Source: Escherichia coli | GTDB lineage: Bacteria; Pseudomonadota; Gammaproteobacteria; Enterobacterales; Enterobacteriaceae | Length of the DNA: 64,000 nucleotides | Reading direction: 5' to 3' (one strand) | Assembly (NCBI RefSeq): GCF_041248615.1 | Contig: NZ_CP158426.1 | Shown here: positions 2,982 through 51,742 of the stretch, piece after piece | How positions within the stretch are numbered: the first letter of the stretch is position 1 | How the letters are laid out: every line of letters begins with the position of its first letter | Translations under genes and position numbers: made by a program | The notes under the pieces: model-generated | What the model was told of the DNA's origin: nothing | Database searches by the model: none | The model's input: only the letters and a program-made list of their open reading frames with translations

Positions 2982-3257
2982 GTGGCTTCTGTTTCTATCA
3001 GCTGTCCCTCCTGTTCAGCTACTGACGGGGTGGTGCGTAACGGCAAAAGCACCGCCGGACATCAGCGCTATCTCTGCTCTCACTGCCGTAAAACATGGCA
3101 ACTGCAGTTCACTTACACCGCTTCTCAACCCGGTACGCACCAGAAAATCATTGATATGGCCATGAATGGCGTTGGATGCCGGGCAACCGCCCGCATTATG
3201 GGCGTTGGCCTCAACACGATTTTCCGCCATTTAAAAAACTCAGGCCGCAGTCGGTAA
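2982..3257 (+). CDS. insA: IS1 InsA (transposition repressor / N-terminal part of the transposase)
   Basis: 91-aa [42 protein letters not shown]... characteristic of IS1 InsA. Confidence 0.95.
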
Positions 3258-3679
3258 CCTCGCGCATACAGCCGGGCAGTGACGTCATCGTCTGCGCGGA
3301 AATGGACGAACAGTGGGGATACGTCGGGGCTAAATCGCGCCAGCGCTGGCTGTTTTACGCGTATGACAGGCTCCGGAAGACGGTTGTTGCGCACGTATTC
3401 GGTGAACGCACTATGGCGACGCTGGGGCGTCTTATGAGCCTGCTGTCACCCTTTGACGTGGTGATATGGATGACGGATGGCTGGCCGCTGTATGAATCCC
3501 GCCTGAAGGGAAAGCTGCACGTAATCAGCAAGCGATATACGCAGCGAATTGAGCGGCATAACCTGAATCTGAGGCAGCACCTGGCACGGCTGGGACGGAA
3601 GTCGCTGTCGTTCTCAAAATCGGTGGAGCTGCATGACAAAGTCATCGGGCATTATCTGAACATAAAACACTATCAATAA
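3176..3679 (+). CDS. insB: IS1 InsB (transposase catalytic part, made as InsAB' fusion by -1 frameshift)
   Basis: 167-aa ORF overlapping insA in the -1 frame; characteristic IS1 InsB sequence. Confidence 0.93.
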
Positions 3680-8227: not shown

Positions 8228-8900
8228 AAATGCGCCTGTAAGGCTCTGTTACCAGCCGCGCCCTAACAGGCGCATACGATCTGACATTTGCATTCAACTT
8301 CGTTACTTACGGCCCGTAAACGGGCTGCCCGGATAGGGAATCGATAACTGCTCCCCCATTTTATCCTCTTCAAGCTGGTGCTTTATGTAGTCCTGTATCT
8401 TCGCCGTGTTCTTACCCACCGTATCGACATAGTACCCTCGGCACCAGAACTCCCTGTTTCTGTATTTGAATTTCAAATCCCCAAACTGCTCGTAAAGCAT
8501 CAGACTGCTTTTCCCTTTCAGATATCCCATAAAGCCGGATACGCTCATTTTGGGTGGGATTTCCACAAGCATATGGATATGATCTGCGCAGCACTCTGCT
8601 TCCAGAATCCGTACGCTTTTCCACTCACACAGCTTTCTCAAAATACTGCCTATCGCCCTACGCTTCTCTCCGTAAAACGCCAGTCTTCGGTATTTCGGCG
8701 CAAAAACTATGTGATATTTACAGTTCCAGCGGGTGTGCGCTAAGCTCTTTTCGTCCCCCATTGGGACCCCCTTTTGATTTCTTGTTTGACACTTGCAGTT
8801 GCCAGACCGCAAGGTGTTTTAACAAATCAAAAGGGGTTTTAATAACTGGCTCAAAGCTGAAAGCTTTCCGGAACCCCCAGCCTAGCTGGGGGTTTTCTGT
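8228..8900 (-). mobile_element. IS200-like insertion sequence (IS200/IS605 family); boundaries approximate
   Basis: Contains an intact IS200-type tnpA, a structured 5' leader with an RBS-sequestering inverted repeat and a perfect terminal hairpin (8874..8892), plus subterminal palindromes near 8231..8273 and 8307..8330. This family makes no target duplication, so ends cannot be set precisely by eye. Confidence 0.8.
8303..8761 (-). CDS. tnpA: IS200-type Y1 (HuH) transposase TnpA, 152 aa
   Basis: Translation MGDEKSLAHTRWNCKYHIVFAPKYRR...HIHMLVEIPPK...GYYVDTVGKN is near-identical to the IS200 TnpA I recall (HuH motif HIHML, catalytic Tyr region). Track ORF 8303..8812 has an upstream extension; the Met at 8761 has a GGGGG Shine-Dalgarno. 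Confidence 0.9.
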   Translation of the reverse strand: MGDEKSLAHTRWNCKYHIVFAPKYRRLAFYGEKRRAIGSILRKLCEWKSVRILEAECCADHIHMLVEIPPKMSVSGFMGYLKGKSSLMLYEQFGDLKFKYRNREFWCRGYYVDTVGKNTAKIQDYIKHQLEEDKMGEQLSIPYPGSPFTGRK

Positions 8901-11605: not shown

Positions 11606-11914
11606 TCAAGCGGCAATAGCGAAATTCAGAATACGTGTAATCTCATTCAAATGTCCCGGATATGCTTCATGATTCTCAGCGTCAACATCTTCAATAAATA
11701 ATATCAGTTCAGTAATTAACGCATTAGCATCGTCATAATTTATCCCGGCTAACTCTGGCGAAGTTTCAGTACCATAGTTAATCGTCAGGTTGTTCATAAC
11801 TGTGAGGATATGGATAAAATATTTATGACAAACATTACATGTGGTTTTATTACCCAAAGTATTATACAGCATATCAAGTAATGCCAGTATTCTACGGTTT
11901 TGCACATCGTTCAT
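11606..11914 (-). CDS. Hypothetical 102-aa protein (no signal peptide), second gene of the AT-rich islet
   Basis: ORF in AT-rich DNA, 10 bp downstream of the lipoprotein gene on the same strand; contains a Cys-x2-Cys-His motif (CNVCH); no family recognised. Confidence 0.6.
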   Translation of the reverse strand: MNDVQNRRILALLDMLYNTLGNKTTCNVCHKYFIHILTVMNNLTINYGTETSPELAGINYDDANALITELILFIEDVDAENHEAYPGHLNEITRILNFAIAA

Positions 11915-11924
11915 AAAAAGCCTC

Positions 11925-12926
11925 CTATAACATTATTCCGCTGGCAATAAGTAATTTTGCCAGCCCCTCAGACGCCTTTAACCCACTAATGACCTGTGCG
12001 CGTAATATTTCATTTAATCTTTTTTGTTCAGCTGCCGTGCGTGTTTTATTAACGTATAAGCTTTTTAGATAATCACCCTTATCTATAAAGGCATTTAAAG
12101 CCTCAATCGCAGGCATGGCAGGTGCCGATGCCTGTAGTCTGGTTTCATTCACATTGATTACTGAACTTAGAAACTCCTTCCTGTTTTTCAGAGTGTTAAA
12201 CTCTGTATTCTTAGAGTTTTTAGATGCTGTATTATAATAAAACATATTATCATGCACATTCGCAAAGGTATAATTTTCAATCTTATTGCTTTTTGTATAA
12301 ATATCATTGCGCAAAACCGCCATGTTCTTTATAAGTCTTACCCAGTTTTCATCTGCCGTTTTGCCTATTTTTCCAGAATTGACTTTAATTATATATAACT
12401 CATTGAAATAATTTACCAAATCTTTAACCGCTGCTGCAGATTGAACTAAATCTTTGCTATGTGAAACACCAAGTAGTGTTTGTGCGTTGTTTGCGTGATC
12501 CAGAGCCTGTTTAAGTAATGCCACTTGCTGACTTTCCGTAGTTGCCATATCCTTTGTCAGAAGTTCCACATAAGCGCTCATGCTATTAATGACTTCCATT
12601 GAAGCCAGTAATTTTTCTTTCTCGAAAGGGACTAATTGTACTTGTTTTGTATTTGGCCCTGAACGCTGGCATAATTTTCCGCCATTCCCATCACCGCCTA
12701 TATCAATGGTATAATCAGGTCGCAGAGCACAATCCGGATTAGTCGCGTAGAAATTAACAAGGAAGTTTTCACGAGAAGCATAGTATTGTTTAAAGAAACT
12801 TGCATTCGCCGCTACTGCTTTGTTACCCGCAGTAATAACAGTTTCAGCTTGTTCGTTTTTCAATGCTTCAGTTGCACAACCTGAAAGCATTAACAGCGAT
12901 AGAAATATTCCACTATATCTAATCAT
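11925..12926 (-). CDS. Hypothetical 333-aa predicted lipoprotein, first gene of the AT-rich islet
   Basis: N-terminus MIRYSGIFLSLLMLSGC has a hydrophobic core and an LSGC lipobox (signal peptidase II type); the rest is Asn/Lys-rich with no recognisable catalytic motif; codon usage is AT-biased. Confidence 0.7.
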   Translation of the reverse strand: MIRYSGIFLSLLMLSGCATEALKNEQAETVITAGNKAVAANASFFKQYYASRENFLVNFYATNPDCALRPDYTIDIGGDGNGGKLCQRSGPNTKQVQLVPFEKEKLLASMEVINSMSAYVELLTKDMATTESQQVALLKQALDHANNAQTLLGVSHSKDLVQSAAAVKDLVNYFNELYIIKVNSGKIGKTADENWVRLIKNMAVLRNDIYTKSNKIENYTFANVHDNMFYYNTASKNSKNTEFNTLKNRKEFLSSVINVNETRLQASAPAMPAIEALNAFIDKGDYLKSLYVNKTRTAAEQKRLNEILRAQVISGLKASEGLAKLLIASGIML

Positions 12927-16104: not shown

Positions 16105-16725
16105 TTATAAGAAAGGCTTCACATCACCTACGCCTTCACGCACCACGACCGGCGTATCATCAGTAAGATCAATAACCGTTGTTGGTTTCTGCCCGAGATA
16201 GCCGCCGTGAATAATCAAATCCACCTGTTTTTCCAGACGGTCTTTAATTTCTTCCGGATCGGATTCGGTAAATTCGCTACCTGGCAGCATCAGTGATGTG
16301 GAAAGCATCGGTTCGCCCAATGCTTCAAGCAGCGCCTGCGCAATCGGGTTAGAAGGCACACGCATACCGATGGTTTTGCGTTTTTCCTGCAACAGACGGC
16401 GTGGCACTTCCTTCGTCCCCTTCAGGATGAAGGTATAGTTGCCCGGCGTGTTGTTTTTCATTAAACGAAACGCAACGTTATCGACAAATGAATAGGTCGA
16501 GAGTTCAGAAAGATCGCGACACATCAGGGTAAAGTTGTGACCGTCCGGCAGCTGGCGAATACGACAAATACGCTCCATCGCGTTTTTATCTTCAATTTTA
16601 CAGCCGAGCGCATAGCCGGAATCAGTTGGATAAACAATCACCCCGCCTTTACGCACGATCTCCACCGCCTGGTTGATCAGACGTTGCTGCGGGTTATCAG
16701 GATGAATATAAAAAAACTGGCTCAT
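16105..16725 (-). CDS. yciO: YrdC/Sua5-family RNA-binding protein YciO
   Basis: 206-aa product starting MSQFFYIHPDNPQQ...; track ORF is extended 12 codons upstream; start overlaps the trpH stop. Confidence 0.9.
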   Translation of the reverse strand: MSQFFYIHPDNPQQRLINQAVEIVRKGGVIVYPTDSGYALGCKIEDKNAMERICRIRQLPDGHNFTLMCRDLSELSTYSFVDNVAFRLMKNNTPGNYTFILKGTKEVPRRLLQEKRKTIGMRVPSNPIAQALLEALGEPMLSTSLMLPGSEFTESDPEEIKDRLEKQVDLIIHGGYLGQKPTTVIDLTDDTPVVVREGVGDVKPFL

Positions 16726-17603
16726 AATTCCCTCTCTGTGGTGTTCTGCGGCTGTTCCCATAGCTGCCAGACGCCTTCAACGCCTGCGGGCAGCCAGAGT
16801 TTACGACCCAGTTCGATCCACGGGCATGGCTGATGAAAATCAGATCCTTGTGATGCCCATAAATGATGCTGACGCGCAAGTGTCGCCAGCTGGGTGCGTT
16901 CATTGGGCGATTGCTGGCACTGCGCGACTTCCATCGCGTCGCCGTGGTGTTCGGCAAAATGCGCAACCAATCTTTTCAGCCATTTAGCACTAAGATTGTA
17001 CCGCCCAGGATGAGCTAGCACCGCCTTACCGCCAGAATGATGAATGACATCAATAGCTTGTTCTATTGTACACCACTGTGGCGGAACGTATCCGGTTTTC
17101 CCGCGCGCCAGATACTTTTTAAAGACATCCGCCATTGAACTGGCTTTGCCGCACTCCACAAGGAAACGCGCAAAATGACCGCGCGTCACCGCACCGCCCT
17201 GCGCCAGTCTTTGCGCGCCTTCCAGTGCCCCAGGTATTTGCGCTTTTTCAAGTCTTTCGGCAATCAGCTGCGCCCGCTGATTGCGCCGTTCTGTCTGCTG
17301 CGCGAGGAACTCACGCATTAGCGGATGAGTAATATCAATATTCAGCCCGACAATATGAATTTCATGATTTTCCCAGACTGTGGAAATTTCCACGCCGGGT
17401 ATAAGATTCAGCGCCAGTCCCGAACGTGAAATTTCCTCTCTTGCTGGCGCGATTGCAGCTGTGGTGTCATGGTCGGTGATCGCCAGGGTGCCGACGCGCA
17501 TCTCGACTGCACGGTGCACCAATGCTTCTGGCGTCAGGCAGCCATCGGAAGCTGTGGTATGGCTGTGCAGGTCGTAAATCACTGCGTAATTCGTGTCGCT
17601 CAA
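16722..17603 (-). CDS. trpH: PHP-domain 5'-3' exoribonuclease TrpH (YciV/Rnm)
   Basis: 293-aa ORF with PHP motifs (HSHTTASDG, HPGRY); located immediately upstream of and divergent from the trp operon. Confidence 0.92.
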   Translation of the reverse strand: MSDTNYAVIYDLHSHTTASDGCLTPEALVHRAVEMRVGTLAITDHDTTAAIAPAREEISRSGLALNLIPGVEISTVWENHEIHIVGLNIDITHPLMREFLAQQTERRNQRAQLIAERLEKAQIPGALEGAQRLAQGGAVTRGHFARFLVECGKASSMADVFKKYLARGKTGYVPPQWCTIEQAIDVIHHSGGKAVLAHPGRYNLSAKWLKRLVAHFAEHHGDAMEVAQCQQSPNERTQLATLARQHHLWASQGSDFHQPCPWIELGRKLWLPAGVEGVWQLWEQPQNTTEREL

Positions 17604-17678
17604 GGCGCACTCCCGTTCTGGATAATGTTTTTTGCGCCGACATCATAACGGTTCTGGCAAATATTCTGAAATGAGCTG

Positions 17679-17713
17679 TTGACAATTAATCATTGAACTA
17701 GTTAACTAGTACG
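17679..17713 (+). promoter_or_regulatory. trp promoter (-35 TTGACA 17679..17684, -10 TTAACT 17702..17707) with overlapping TrpR operator palindrome
   Basis: Classic sequence CTGTTGACAATTAATCAT.GAACTAGTTAACTAGTACGCAAG read directly; 17-bp spacer. Confidence 0.92.
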
Positions 17714-17740
17714 CAAGTTCACGTAAAAAGGGTATCGACA

Positions 17741-17785
17741 ATGAAAGCAATTTTCGTACTGAAAGGTTGGTGGCGCACTTCCTGA
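17741..17785 (+). CDS. trpL: trp operon leader peptide ([14 protein letters not shown])
   Basis: 14-codon ORF with tandem Trp codons TGG TGG at 17768..17773. Confidence 0.95.
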
Positions 17786-17827
17786 AACGGGCAGTGTATT
17801 CACCATGCGTAAAGCAATCAGATACCC

Positions 17828-17856
17828 AGCCCGCCTAATGAGCGGGCTTTTTTTTG
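17828..17856 (+). terminator. trp attenuator (3:4 terminator hairpin plus U-tract)
   Basis: AGCCCGCC-TAAT-GAGCGGGCT followed by TTTTTTTT, between trpL and trpE. Confidence 0.92.
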
Positions 17857-17876
17857 AACAAAATTAGAGAATAACA

Positions 17877-19439
17877 ATGCAAACACAAAAACCGACTCTT
17901 GAACTGCTAACCTGCGAAGGCGCTTATCGCGACAACCCGACTGCGCTTTTTCACCAGTTGTGTGGGAATCGTCCAGCAACGCTGCTGCTGGAATCCGCAG
18001 ATATCGACAGCAAAGATGATTTAAAAAGCCTGCTGCTGGTAGACAGTGCGCTGCGCATTACAGCATTAGGTGACACGGTCACAATTCAGGCACTTTCCGG
18101 CAATGGTGAAGCCCTGCTGGCACTACTGGATAACGCCCTGCCTGCGGGTGTGGAAAATGAACAATCACCAAACTGCCGTGTGCTGCGCTTCCCCCCTGTC
18201 AGTCCACTGCTGGATGAAGACGCCCGCTTATGCTCCCTTTCGGTTTTTGACGCTTTCCGCTTATTACAGAATCTGTTGCATGTACCGAAGGAAGAACGAG
18301 AAGCAATGTTCTTCGGCGGCCTGTTCTCTTATGACCTTGTGGCGGGGTTTGAAGATTTACCGCAACTGTCAGCGGAAAATAACTGCCCTGATTTCTGTTT
18401 TTATCTCGCTGAAACGCTGATGGTGATTGACCATCAGAAAAAAAGCACCCGCATTCAGGCCAGCCTGTTTGCTCCGAATGAAGAAGAAAAACAACGTCTC
18501 ACTGCTCGCCTGAACGATCTTCGCCAGCAACTGACCGAAACCGCGCCACCGCTGCCGGTGGTTTCCGTGCCGCATATGCGTTGTGAATGTAACCAGAGCG
18601 ATGAAGAGTTCGGTGGCGTAGTGCGTTTGTTGCAAAAAGCGATTCGCGCTGGAGAAATTTTCCAGGTGGTGCCATCTCGCCGTTTCTCTCTGCCCTGCCC
18701 GTCACCGCTGGCGGCCTATTACGTGCTGAAAAAGAGTAATCCCAGCCCGTACATGTTTTTTATGCAGGATAATGATTTCACCCTGTTTGGCGCGTCGCCG
18801 GAAAGTTCGCTCAAGTATGACGCCACCAGCCGCCAGATTGAGATCTACCCGATTGCCGGAACACGCCCGCGCGGTCGTCGCGCCGATGGCTCGCTGGACA
18901 GAGACCTCGACAGCCGCATCGAACTGGAAATGCGTACCGATCATAAAGAGCTTTCTGAACATCTGATGCTGGTGGATCTCGCCCGTAATGATCTGGCACG
19001 CATTTGCACCCCCGGTAGTCGCTACGTCGCCGATCTCACCAAAGTTGACCGTTATTCTTATGTGATGCACCTCGTCTCCCGCGTGGTCGGTGAGCTGCGC
19101 CACGATCTCGACGCCCTGCACGCTTACCGCGCCTGTATGAATATGGGGACATTAAGCGGTGCGCCGAAAGTGCGCGCCATGCAGTTAATTGCCGGGGCGG
19201 AAGGTCGTCGCCGCGGCAGCTACGGCGGCGCAGTAGGTTATTTCACCGCGCATGGCGATCTCGACACCTGCATTGTGATCCGCTCGGCGCTGGTGGAAAA
19301 CGGTATCGCCACCGTGCAAGCCGGTGCTGGCGTGGTACTTGATTCTGTTCCGCAGTCGGAAGCCGACGAAACCCGTAATAAAGCCCGCGCTGTACTGCGC
19401 GCTATTGCCACCGCGCATCATGCACAGGAGACGTTCTGA
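17877..19439 (+). CDS. trpE: Anthranilate synthase component I
   Basis: 520-aa [24 protein letters not shown]...; stop overlaps the trpD start (TGATG). Confidence 0.97.
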
Positions 19440-21034
19440 TGGCTGACATTCTGCTGCTCGATAATATCGACTCTTTTACTTACAACCTGGCAGATCAGTT
19501 GCGCAGCAATGGTCATAACGTGGTGATTTACCGCAACCATATTCCGGCGCAGACCTTAATTGAACGCCTGGCGACAATGAGCAATCCGGTGCTGATGCTT
19601 TCTCCTGGCCCCGGTGTGCCAAGCGAAGCCGGTTGTATGCCAGAACTCCTCACCCGCCTGCGCGGCAAGCTGCCAATTATTGGCATTTGCCTCGGTCATC
19701 AGGCGATTGTCGAAGCTTATGGGGGGTATGTCGGTCAGGCGGGCGAAATTCTTCACGGTAAAGCGTCGAGTATTGAACATGACGGTCAGGCGATGTTTGC
19801 CGGATTAACAAACCCATTGCCAGTGGCGCGTTATCACTCGCTGGTTGGCAGTAACATTCCGGCCGGTTTAACCATCAACGCCCATTTTAATGGCATGGTG
19901 ATGGCGGTGCGTCACGATGCAGATCGCGTTTGTGGATTCCAGTTCCATCCGGAATCCATTCTTACTACCCAGGGTGCTCGCCTGCTGGAACAAACGCTGG
20001 CCTGGGCGCAGCAGAAACTGGAACCGACCAACACGCTGCAACCGATTCTGGAAAAACTGTATCAGGCGCAGACCCTTAGCCAGCAGGAAAGTCACCAGCT
20101 GTTTTCAGCGGTGGTACGTGGCGAACTGAAACCGGAACAACTGGCGGCGGCGCTGGTGAGCATGAAAATTCGCGGCGAGCACCCGAACGAGATCGCCGGA
20201 GCAGCAACCGCGCTACTGGAAAATGCCGCGCCGTTCCCGCGCCCGGATTATCTGTTTGCTGATATCGTCGGTACTGGCGGTGACGGCAGTAACAGCATCA
20301 ATATTTCTACCGCCAGTGCGTTTGTCGCCGCGGCCTGTGGGCTGAAAGTGGCGAAACACGGCAACCGTAGCGTCTCCAGTAAATCCGGCTCGTCGGATCT
20401 GCTGGCGGCGTTCGGTATTAATCTTGATATGAACGCCGATAAATCGCGCCAGGCGCTGGATGAGTTAGGCGTCTGTTTCCTCTTTGCGCCGAAATATCAC
20501 ACCGGATTCCGCCACGCGATGCCGGTTCGCCAACAACTGAAAACCCGCACCCTGTTCAATGTGCTGGGGCCATTGATTAACCCGGCGCATCCGCCGCTGG
20601 CGCTAATTGGTGTTTATAGTCCGGAACTGGTGCTGCCGATTGCCGAAACCTTGCGCGTGCTGGGGTATCAACGCGCTGCGGTAGTGCACAGCGGCGGGAT
20701 GGATGAAGTTTCATTACACGCGCCGACAATCGTTGCCGAACTGCATGACGGTGAAATTAAGAGCTATCAGCTAACTGCAGAAGATTTTGGCCTGACACCC
20801 TACCACCAGGAGCAACTGGCAGGCGGAACACCGGAAGAAAACCGTGACATTTTAACACGCTTGTTACAAGGTAAAGGCGACGCCGCCCATGAAGCAGCCG
20901 TCGCGGCGAACGTCGCCATGTTAATGCGCCTGCATGGCCATGAAGATCTGCAAGCCAATGCGCAAACCGTTCTTGAGGTACTGCGCAGTGGTTCCGCTTA
21001 CGACAGAGTCACCGCACTGGCGGCACGAGGGTAA
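19439..21034 (+). CDS. trpD: Bifunctional anthranilate synthase component II / anthranilate phosphoribosyltransferase
   Basis: 531-aa ORF; N-terminal glutamine amidotransferase domain (GICLGHQ) fused to the PRT domain. Confidence 0.97.
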
Positions 21035-22396
21035 ATGATGCAAACCGTTTTAGCGAAAATCGTCGCAGACAAGGCGATTTGGGTAGAAACCCGCAAACAG
21101 CAGCAACCGCTGGCCAGTTTTCAGAATGAGGTTCAGCCGAGCACGCGACATTTTTATGATGCACTTCAGGGCGCACGCACGGCGTTTATTCTGGAGTGTA
21201 AAAAAGCGTCGCCGTCAAAAGGCGTGATCCGTGATGATTTCGATCCGGCACGCATTGCCGCCATTTATAAACATTACGCTTCGGCAATTTCGGTGCTGAC
21301 TGATGAGAAATATTTTCAGGGGAGCTTTGATTTCCTCCCCATCGTCAGCCAAATCGCCCCGCAGCCGATTTTATGTAAAGACTTCATTATCGATCCTTAC
21401 CAGATCTATCTGGCGCGCTATTACCAGGCCGATGCCTGCTTATTAATGCTTTCAGTACTGGATGACGAACAATATCGCCAGCTTGCTGCCGTCGCCCACA
21501 GTCTGGAGATGGGTGTGCTGACCGAAGTCAGTAATGAAGAGGAACTGGAGCGTGCCATTGCATTGGGGGCAAAGGTCGTTGGCATCAACAACCGCGATCT
21601 GCGTGATTTGTCGATTGATCTCAACCGTACCCGCGAGCTTGCGCCGAAACTGGGGCACAACGTGACGGTAATCAGCGAATCCGGCATCAATACTTACGCT
21701 CAGGTGCGCGAGTTAAGCCACTTCGCTAACGGTTTTCTGATTGGTTCGGCGTTGATGGCCCATGACGATTTGAACGCCGCCGTGCGCCGGGTGTTGCTTG
21801 GTGAGAATAAAGTGTGTGGCCTGACGCGTGGGCAAGATGCTAAAGCAGCTTATGACGCGGGCGCGATTTACGGTGGGTTGATTTTTGTTACAACGTCACC
21901 GCGTTGCGTCAGCGTTGAACAGGCGCAGGAAGTGATGGCTGCGGCACCGTTGCAATACGTTGGCGTATTCCGCAATCACGATATTGCCGATGTGGTGGAC
22001 AAAGCTAACGCGTTATCGCTGGCAGCAGTGCAACTGCATGGTAATGAAGATCAGCAATATATCGACGCACTGCGTGACGTGCTGCCCGCAAACGTTGCCA
22101 TCTGGAAAGCATTGAGCGTCGGTGAAACTCTTCCCGCACGCGATTTTCAGCACGTCGATAAATATGTTTTCGACAACGGCCAGGGTGGTAGCGGGCAACG
22201 TTTCGACTGGTCACTGTTAAACGGTCAATCGCTTGGCAACGTTCTGCTGGCGGGTGGCTTAGGCGCAGATAACTGCGTGGAAGCGGCACAAACCGGCTGC
22301 GCCGGACTTGATTTTAATTCTGCTGTAGAGTCACAACCGGGTATAAAAGACGCACATCTTTTGGCCTCGGTTTTCCAGACGCTGCGCGCATATTAA
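21035..22396 (+). CDS. trpC: Bifunctional indole-3-glycerol-phosphate synthase / phosphoribosylanthranilate isomerase
   Basis: 453-aa [21 protein letters not shown]...; start may be the second Met at 21038. Confidence 0.96.
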
Positions 22397-22407
22397 GGAA
22401 AGGAACA

Positions 22408-23601
22408 ATGACAACATTACTTAACCCCTATTTTGGTGAGTTTGGCGGCATGTACGTGCCACAAATCCTGATGCCTGCTCTGCGCCAGCTGGAAGAAGCT
22501 TTTGTCAGCGCGCAAAAAGATCCTGAATTTCAGGCCCAGTTCAACGACCTGTTGAAAAACTATGCCGGGCGTCCAACCGCACTGACCAAATGCCAGAACA
22601 TTACGGCTGGGACGAACACTACGCTGTATCTTAAGCGCGAAGATTTACTGCACGGCGGCGCGCATAAAACTAACCAGGTGCTCGGTCAGGCTTTACTGGC
22701 GAAGCGGATGGGTAAAACCGAAATCATCGCCGAAACCGGTGCCGGTCAGCATGGCGTGGCGTCGGCCCTTGCCAGTGCCCTGCTCGGCCTGAAATGCCGT
22801 ATTTATATGGGTGCCAAAGACGTTGAACGCCAGTCGCCAAACGTTTTTCGTATGCGCTTAATGGGTGCGGAAGTGATCCCGGTACATAGCGGTTCCGCGA
22901 CGCTGAAAGATGCCTGTAACGAGGCGCTACGCGACTGGTCCGGCAGTTATGAAACCGCGCACTATATGCTGGGCACCGCAGCTGGCCCGCATCCTTACCC
23001 GACCATTGTGCGTGAGTTTCAGCGAATGATTGGCGAAGAAACGAAAGCGCAGATTCTGGAAAGAGAAGGTCGCCTGCCGGATGCGGTTATCGCTTGTGTT
23101 GGCGGCGGTTCAAATGCCATCGGCATGTTTGCTGATTTCATCAACGAAACCGACGTCGGCCTGATTGGTGTCGAACCAGGCGGTCACGGTATCGAAACTG
23201 GCGAGCACGGCGCACCGTTAAAACACGGTCGCGTGGGCATCTATTTCGGTATGAAAGCGCCGATGATGCAAACCGAAGACGGGCAGATTGAAGAATCTTA
23301 CTCCATCTCCGCCGGACTGGATTTCCCGTCTGTCGGCCCACAACACGCGTATCTTAACAGCACTGGACGCGCTGATTACGTGTCAATTACCGATGATGAA
23401 GCACTGGAAGCCTTCAAAACGCTGTGCCTGCACGAAGGGATCATCCCGGCGCTGGAATCCTCCCACGCCCTGGCCCATGCGCTGAAAATGATGCGCGAAA
23501 ACCCGGAAAAAGAGCAGCTACTGGTGGTTAACCTTTCCGGTCGCGGCGATAAAGACATCTTCACCGTTCACGATATTTTGAAAGCACGAGGGGAAATCTG
23601 A
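22408..23601 (+). CDS. trpB: Tryptophan synthase beta chain
   Basis: 397-aa [24 protein letters not shown]... with the PLP-binding Lys region (HGGAHKTNQ). Confidence 0.97.
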
Positions 23602-24407
23602 TGCAACGCTACGAATCTCTGTTTGCCCAGTTGAAGGAGCGCAAAGAAGGCGCATTCGTTCCTTTCGTCACCCTCGGTGATCCGGGCATTGAGCAGTCGC
23701 TGAAAATTATCGACACGCTAATTGAAGCCGGTGCTGACGCGCTGGAGTTAGGTATCCCCTTCTCCGACCCACTGGCGGATGGCCCGACGATTCAAAACGC
23801 CACACTGCGTGCCTTTGCGGCAGGTGTGACCCCGGCACAGTGCTTTGAGATGCTGGCACTGATTCGCCAGAAGCACCCGACCATTCCCATCGGCCTTTTG
23901 ATGTATGCCAACCTGGTGTTTAACAAAGGCATTGATGAGTTTTATGCCCAGTGCGAGAAAGTCGGCGTCGATTCGGTGCTGGTTGCCGATGTGCCAGTGG
24001 AAGAGTCCGCTCCCTTCCGCCAGGCCGCGTTGCGTCATAATGTCGCACCTATCTTTATTTGCCCGCCGAATGCCGACGATGATTTGCTGCGCCAGATAGC
24101 CTCCTACGGTCGTGGATACACCTATTTATTGTCACGTGCGGGCGTGACCGGCGCAGAAAACCGCGCCGCGTTACCCCTCAATCATCTGGTCACGAAGCTG
24201 AAAGAGTACAATGCTGCGCCTCCATTGCAGGGCTTTGGTATTTCCGCCCCGGATCAGGTAAAAGCAGCGATTGATGCAGGAGCTGCGGGCGCGATTTCTG
24301 GTTCGGCCATTGTTAAAATCATCGAGCAACATATTAATGAGCCAGAGAAAATGCTGGCGGCACTGAAAGCTTTTGTACAACCGATGAAAGCGGCGACGCG
24401 CAGTTAA
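23601..24407 (+). CDS. trpA: Tryptophan synthase alpha chain
   Basis: 268-aa [31 protein letters not shown]...; start overlaps the trpB stop. Confidence 0.97.
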
Positions 24408-26965: not shown

Positions 26966-27159
26966 TTTTTAAATATTTTCGCTACGCAAATATTAACTCG
27001 TTCGCCACTTGCCGCGGTTTGCCCACGCCTGAAGGCCAGCAATTACCTCCGCTTTACAAAGATATGCTTTTCCATACAAGACCTGATGCTGCCACCCGAG
27101 GCTTAACCAGGGTACAATTGCCCGCTAATTAACACCTGCATAAAACTCAAGGAGAGTGC

Positions 27160-51003: not shown

Positions 51004-51088
<85 letters not shown>

Positions 51089-51122
51089 TCTCAAGCATTA
51101 CCTCAAAATTTGAATTACCCCT

Positions 51123-51207
<85 letters not shown>

Positions 51208-51742
51208 TCACTTTCAAAAGTCCCTGAACTCTCAAACGAATCCGTAATTAAATATTCTGCCCAAGCGGGGAAGGATGAGAAGCTTCGACCAAGGTTCGAC
51301 TTGAGCGCCAGCGAGAGAGCGTGGCCGCAGGCAACGACCCGAAGGGCGAAGCGCGCAGCGCTGAGTAATCCTTCCCCCACCACCATAACTTTCAAAAGCC
51401 CCGGAATTCTCAAACGAATCCGCAATCAAATATTCTGCCCATGCGGGGAAGGATGAGAAGCTTCAACCAAGGTTCGACTTGAGCGCCAGCGAGAGAGCGT
51501 TGCCGCAGGCAACGACCCGAAGGGCGAAGCGCGCAGCGCTGAGTAATCCTTCTCCCACCACCATCACTTTTCAAAAGTCCGTGAACTCTCAAACGAATCC
51601 GCAATTAAATATTCTGCCCATGCGGGGAAGGATGAGAAGCTTCGACCAAGGTGCGACTCGAGCGCCAGCGAGAAAGCGTTGCCGCAGGCAACGACCCGAA
51701 GGGTGAAGCGCGCAGCGCTGAGTAATCCTTCCCCCACCACCA
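51208..51742 (+). repeat. Three tandem 178-bp repeat units distal to tyrV (rtT / tpr region)
   Basis: Units at about 51208..51385, 51386..51563 and 51564..51742, each ending in the tRNA-Tyr 3' terminal sequence AATCCTTCCCCCACCACCA; contains a protamine-like basic ORF. Confidence 0.9.

Follow-up and report, generated by a model that had tools for sequence, protein, structure and literature searches.

The single base that separates this Escherichia coli trp promoter from the textbook K-12 sequence, a T in place of C at position -21, is a natural allele of the species. The window, meaning the whole stretch of 64,000 nucleotides that was analysed, carries a standard and intact trp regulatory region in which this common allele is the sole difference from the textbook. 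With a probability of roughly 90%, the site is an ordinary E. coli trp promoter/operator with a common natural SNP that is derived, old, and near-neutral. The promoter/operator element is already known, the -21T allele has already been sequenced, and the observation matters very little beyond confirming ordinary strain variation.

Identification of the variant base

An initial annotation, made from the window's sequence alone, had claimed a C to T difference from K-12 in the trp promoter/operator, allowing that the K-12 sequence it quoted might be inexact. Alignment of window positions 17400-17900 with K-12 MG1655 (NC_000913.3) places a C in K-12 opposite the window's T at 17694. The difference is real and the K-12 sequence had been quoted correctly, as K-12 does have C and not T at this position. 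Only two other differences from K-12 fall within the aligned stretch 17424-17900. These are G in the window versus A in K-12 at 17586, inside rnm, and T versus C at 17900, inside trpE. In the intergenic region, the leader, and the attenuator, the aligned window equals K-12 at every base except 17694.

The window contains the string ATTAATCATTGAACTAGTTAACTAGTACGCAAG a single time, on the + strand at 17685-17717, and shuffled sequences gave 0 matches. The location given earlier, 17671-17713, is shifted by a few bases relative to this string but does include the variant. The window as a whole is 100% identical to the chromosome of the clinical E. coli isolate NRZ14408 (NZ_LT599825.1, 2947672-3011671).

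Organization of the trp promoter and operator

The elements of the regulatory region are collected in Table 1. The TTGACA and TTAACT hexamers of the promoter are separated by a spacer of 17 bp, and the pair stands upstream of trpL. By RefSeq annotation of the identical NRZ14408 record, the genes under its control are trpE, trpD, trpCF, trpB, and trpA. The +1 position was assigned from the trpL AUG, whose location at +27 is established for the trp operon.

Table 1. Features of the trp regulatory region and adjoining genes in the window.
Feature	Coordinates	Strand	Basis
rnm (trpH/yciV), divergent	16722..17603	-	RefSeq annotation of NRZ14408 record
trp promoter -35 hexamer, TTGACA	17679..17684	+	Direct sequence reading
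Variant base T (-21 of trp promoter)	17694..17694	+	Sequence, K-12 alignment, allele counts
18-bp TrpR core operator, GAACTAGTTAACTAGTAC	17695..17712	+	Sequence; identical to K-12
trp promoter -10 hexamer, TTAACT, inside operator	17702..17707	+	Direct sequence reading
trp transcription start, +1 = A	17715	+	Set so that trpL AUG falls at +27
AGTTC (GAACT on - strand), likely half-site of downstream tandem TrpR dimer	17716..17720	-	Sequence
trpL leader peptide gene	17741..17785	+	RefSeq annotation of NRZ14408 record
Trp leader/attenuator RNA, Rfam RF00513	17762..17855	+	93.1 bits versus gathering score of 41
Attenuator terminator hairpin, then T run	17828-17848	+	Terminator-like site scan
trpE, trpD, trpCF, trpB, trpA structural genes	17877..24407	+	RefSeq annotation of NRZ14408 record

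The half-site bound by TrpR is GNACT, present as an inverted pair 8 bp apart (PMC9413887), and trpO is commonly taken as an 18-bp site (PMC7518442). In the window, the half-sites of the core are inverted, with GAACT at 17695-17699 and AGTAC at 17708-17712 (GTACT on the - strand), and they are separated by the 8-bp spacer AGTTAACT. The operator formed by these two inverted GNACT half-sites overlaps the -10 element. The variant at 17694 lies in the -35/-10 spacer, directly 5′ of G(-20). It stands one base beyond the core and belongs to none of the GNACT half-sites. The K-12 operator can be read as a 20-bp imperfect palindrome whose outermost bases, C(-21) and G(-2), pair symmetrically; T at -21 abolishes this C/G symmetry pair. 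The initial annotation was accurate in placing the base at the palindrome's edge.

A model of tandem binding by TrpR dimers has been published (PMC8745587). AGTTC at 17716-17720 stands 8 bp downstream of TAACT at 17703-17707, giving a second, downstream-shifted arrangement, TAACT-N8-AGTTC, which likely fits tandem TrpR binding as a predicted site. Positions +1 to +7 are strongly conserved, at 1.1-1.9 bits, in the 117 species among the matches listed (see below). A tandem site upstream of the core was rejected, as the would-be half-site at 17687-17691 reads TAATC, a poor match to GNACT. In addition, positions -28 to -25 are essentially unconserved, at 0.05-0.31 bits, in the same 117 species among the matches listed. 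Therefore, the variant falls in no credible upstream tandem site.

The trp promoter was missed by a generic consensus promoter scan, whose rule for the -10 element demands an A at position 2, which TTAACT lacks. This is a limit of the scan and no evidence against the promoter. A new promoter created by the T was also considered and rejected: TTGAAC at 17693-17698 resembles a -35 element, but the hexamers 16-18 bp downstream (AAGTTC, AGTTCA, and GTTCAC) are unlike TATAAT.

All elements with an assigned function are those of K-12, so regulation should work as it does in K-12. Tryptophan-bound TrpR dimers on the operator would cover the -10 element and keep RNA polymerase out, and any transcript started despite TrpR would then face attenuation in the leader. 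The neighbourhood is the usual one, acnA-cysB-topA-sohB-rluB-yciQ-yciO-rnm / trpLEDCBA / ompW-tonB-opp-adhE-hns-nar, and trpR is located outside the 64-kb window. The start codon of the divergent rnm is 91 bp from the variant, which lies upstream of it.

Frequency of the allele in E. coli

To count the alleles, 33-mers centred on -21 were searched by Megablast in 5,426 complete E. coli genomes. Because the program requires a word of 28 identical bases, a 33-mer finds only genomes that have its allele and no other SNP in the central 23 bases. T at -21 was found in 256 of the 5,426 genomes, including HS, ATCC 8739, and many clinical and animal isolates. C was found in the K-12-type 33-mer in 4,371 genomes, together with -28 T>C in 270 (the O157:H7 lineage), and together with -16 T>C in 161 (strain 536, BH100, and others), for a total of at least 4,802 of the 5,426. 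A occurs in 8 of these genomes, and G in 0 of the 5,426 by 33-mer match. The remaining genomes, approximately 355 of the 5,426, match no 33-mer because of other SNPs inside it. They are represented by two samples, E2348/69 (-23 A>G) and FDAARGOS_1298 (-24 C>T), both with C at -21.

T is a well-established minority allele, at a frequency of at least 4.7%, and is neither rare nor new. A rare or private variant was rejected at this frequency (4.7%), with reference strains among the carriers. Strain divergence, which the initial annotation had offered as a simple explanation, is supported, since 256/5426 genomes carry T, a natural minority allele, on several haplotype backgrounds. For users of a trp or tac promoter reference, this means that the K-12 C at -21 is the majority state and that other natural states exist.

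Position -21 is one of several natural SNPs in the spacer stretch from -28 to -21. The -28 T>C change marks 270 genomes of the O157:H7 lineage, and spacer positions -24 and -23 are likewise variable. Elsewhere in the promoter, ATCC 8739 carries -1 C>A. The -16 T>C change, at the equivalent of window base 17699, is also found in O55:H7 DEC5E. It lies within the core operator and turns the left TrpR half-site from GAACT to GAACC. For altered repression it is a more plausible candidate than the change at -21. A small number of matches fell on plasmids. Among the 256 exact matches with T, one is on a record labelled plasmid, and the K-12-type 33-mer with C has five matches on plasmid records. Vectors with the trp promoter, F-primes, or mislabelled contigs could account for these.

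Ancestry and haplotypes of the T allele

The outgroups E. albertii, E. whittamii, and Escherichia sp. E1V33 all carry C at -21, so T is derived within E. coli. Haplotypes of nine E. coli with T and six with C were compared over the 3.9 kb that surround the site. By distance clustering, T is found on at least six local haplotypes, which are interleaved with C haplotypes and differ from one another by up to 3%. The T haplotypes are those of NRZ14408; of 7/2, 50579417, and A10; of O169:H41; of HS and ATCC 8739; of M19; and of 06-00048. Moreover, all four allele combinations exist with a site 108 bp upstream, namely A/C in K-12, A/T in M19, G/T in the window, and G/C in TUM14771. The four-combination pattern and the interleaving require recombination or recurrent mutation, and a single clade of T carriers was rejected on the same two grounds. 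The -21T allele would thus have spread by recombination, by recurrent mutation, or by both.

The trp region is highly polymorphic, with differences of 2-3.6% between strains. According to Milkman and co-workers, it is reportedly a classic mosaic of "clonal segments" in wild E. coli. In a region known as a mosaic, the haplotype pattern is expected, and selection is not indicated by the pattern alone. The haplotypes indicate that T is an old polymorphism that is recombined or recurrent.

Conservation at the flanks of the core operator

One genome per GTDB species was scanned for the 18-bp core, which gave at least 120 loci. Among the matches listed, TTGAC stands at the matching distance in 117 of 120 loci. 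The 117 species were chosen by an exact 18-bp core and are not phylogenetically independent, and the counts that follow are to be read with this in mind. At -21, among the matches listed, 76 species have C, 40 have T, 1 has A, and 0 have G. This means that T occupies -21 in 34% of the orthologous operators listed, all of which have an otherwise identical core. At -2, the position symmetric to -21, G is present in 99 of the 117 listed species and A in 18.

Each flank of the 18-bp core therefore holds approximately 1 bit of information, with a pyrimidine on the left and a purine on the right, which reads as YGNACT on each strand. Position -21, with 1.0 bit, hardly ever holds a purine, and C outnumbers T by about two to one among the matches listed. 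Citrobacter, Enterobacter, Vibrio, Kluyvera, Buttiauxella, and Siccibacter each include species with C and species with T, so the switch at -21 has happened many times.

The near-absence of purines implies that the base at -21 is sensed by something, and the constraint appears to be for a pyrimidine rather than for C. The YGNACT pattern suggests a weak extra specificity, or a DNA-shape requirement, one base beyond the canonical half-site. This flank restriction is consistent with T and C being interchangeable at -21.

Functional consequences and alternative explanations

The change stays within the tolerated pyrimidine set, so it is most likely near-neutral. A slight change in repressor binding had been raised in the initial annotation. 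The comparative evidence, which consists of the C/T interchange across species and the flanks of the aroH and trpR operators, argues for little or no such change, and from these data we infer that -21T has no meaningful consequence for TrpR binding or for the strength of the promoter. Most likely, TrpR affinity and promoter strength would be unchanged by C>T at -21 or would shift by a very small amount. A small shift in affinity, in cooperative tandem binding, or in promoter strength may occur. A search of the literature found no open-access source for position-by-position mutagenesis of the operator.

A functional change, in which weaker or stronger TrpR binding or a spacer-dependent promoter strength would tune basal trp expression in carriers, is improbable. 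It could arise through loss of the outer C/G pair of the 20-bp palindrome or through a changed DNA step beside G(-20), and the base at -21 does directly abut the G(-20) of the GAACT half-site. It is also limited to pyrimidines across species and hence is not invisible. However, T is the base at this position in 34% of the orthologous operators among the matches listed, whose core is otherwise identical, T flanks GNACT in the aroH and trpR operators of K-12, and the base lies outside all GNACT half-sites (PMC9413887). The presence of T on several haplotype backgrounds could in principle be produced by recurrent selection, but the allele reaches only 4.7%, it is mixed among haplotypes in a mosaic region with 2-3.6% divergence, and recombination alone would give such mixing. 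Somewhat more doubtful still is a narrower form of this idea, in which -21T slightly retunes the repression of tryptophan synthesis, through an altered base step beside G(-20) or a shifted balance between single and tandem TrpR dimers, and in which the at least six haplotypes reflect repeated selection rather than recombination.

The chance that T arose from faulty sequencing or assembly, or from a laboratory mutation found in this isolate alone, is minute. Only the prior possibility common to any single-base difference speaks for it, and against it stands the presence of the allele in 256 complete genomes that were assembled independently, HS and ATCC 8739 among them; moreover, the 24 kb of the window around the site match NZ_OW967178.1 at 100.0% (rounded). 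Sequencing error was rejected on the exact 33-mer with T in the 256 genomes. It is equally hard to credit that the change acts not on trp but on the divergent rnm (trpH), via an upstream element of the rnm promoter. A consensus-like - strand promoter, TTCAGA-17-TATGAT, can be read at 17670-17642, 24 bp from the variant, but this match is at chance level (1 found versus 0.7 expected in shuffles), and the variant would be at about -60 of this candidate promoter, outside its core elements. A near-neutral natural SNP in an ordinary trp promoter/operator is the explanation preferred here.

Other features of the region

Several further variants were observed in and beside the trp leader. HS and ATCC 8739 carry GGT>GCT in trpL (Gly9Ala), beside the two regulatory Trp codons, and strain 2017.06.04CC carries GTA>ATA (Val6Ile). 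In strain M19, a 1-bp deletion is present between the attenuator T run and trpE.

Farther from the operon, two adjacent hypothetical genes, encoding 102 and 333 amino acids, occupy 11606-12926 on the - strand between cobO and rluB. Neither protein gave a Pfam or PADLOC family match, and in strain M19 cobO and rluB are only 39 bp apart. This segment is a small accessory insert of hypothetical genes. An IS1B-family element lies at 2982-3679 between ymiA and cysB, and an IS200/IS605-family tnpA at 8303-8761 between yciN and sohB. Between ompW and yciC, at 27043-27132, lies a short pseudogene fragment from the YkgJ family of cysteine-cluster proteins. Finally, two tandem tRNA-Tyr genes followed by three annotated RtT sRNA repeats are located at 51004-51742.

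Comparison with known operators

In the literature of 1987-1993, the critical determinants of TrpR recognition are reported to lie inside the ACTAG/GNACT blocks. The operator crystallised with TrpR by Otwinowski et al. in 1988 reportedly began with TGTACT.

Among the closest known systems is the trpO of K-12, with which the window shares TTGACA, the 17-bp spacer, TTAACT, the core GAACTAGTTAACTAGTAC, AGTTC, trpL, the attenuator, and the gene order, all of them identical. It differs in having T rather than C at -21, with which the outermost C/G symmetry pair is lost. HS, ATCC 8739, and 254 other genomes have the same -21 T in a 33-bp context identical to that of the window, whereas the flanking haplotypes differ by 2-3%. 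ATCC 8739 additionally differs by -1 C>A, and both HS and ATCC 8739 by trpL G9A.

In the aroH and trpR operators of K-12, too, half-sites of the GNACT type are inverted and 8 bp apart, and each is preceded on its 5′ side by a pyrimidine. Both flanking pyrimidines are T in the aroH operator, T-GTACTAGAGAACTAGTGC-A (T-GTACT...AGTGC-A); in the trpR operator, C-GTACTCTTTAGCGAGTAC-A (C-GTACT...AGTAC-A), one is C and the other T. Both operators differ from that of the window in their central sequences, half-site variants (GCACT in aroH), and promoter contexts. Lastly, the trp operators of Citrobacter, Enterobacter, Buttiauxella, Rosenbergiella, Vibrio, and others have the identical 18-bp core and the same -35 spacing, whereas their spacer from -28 to -22 and their leader sequences are freely divergent from those of the window.
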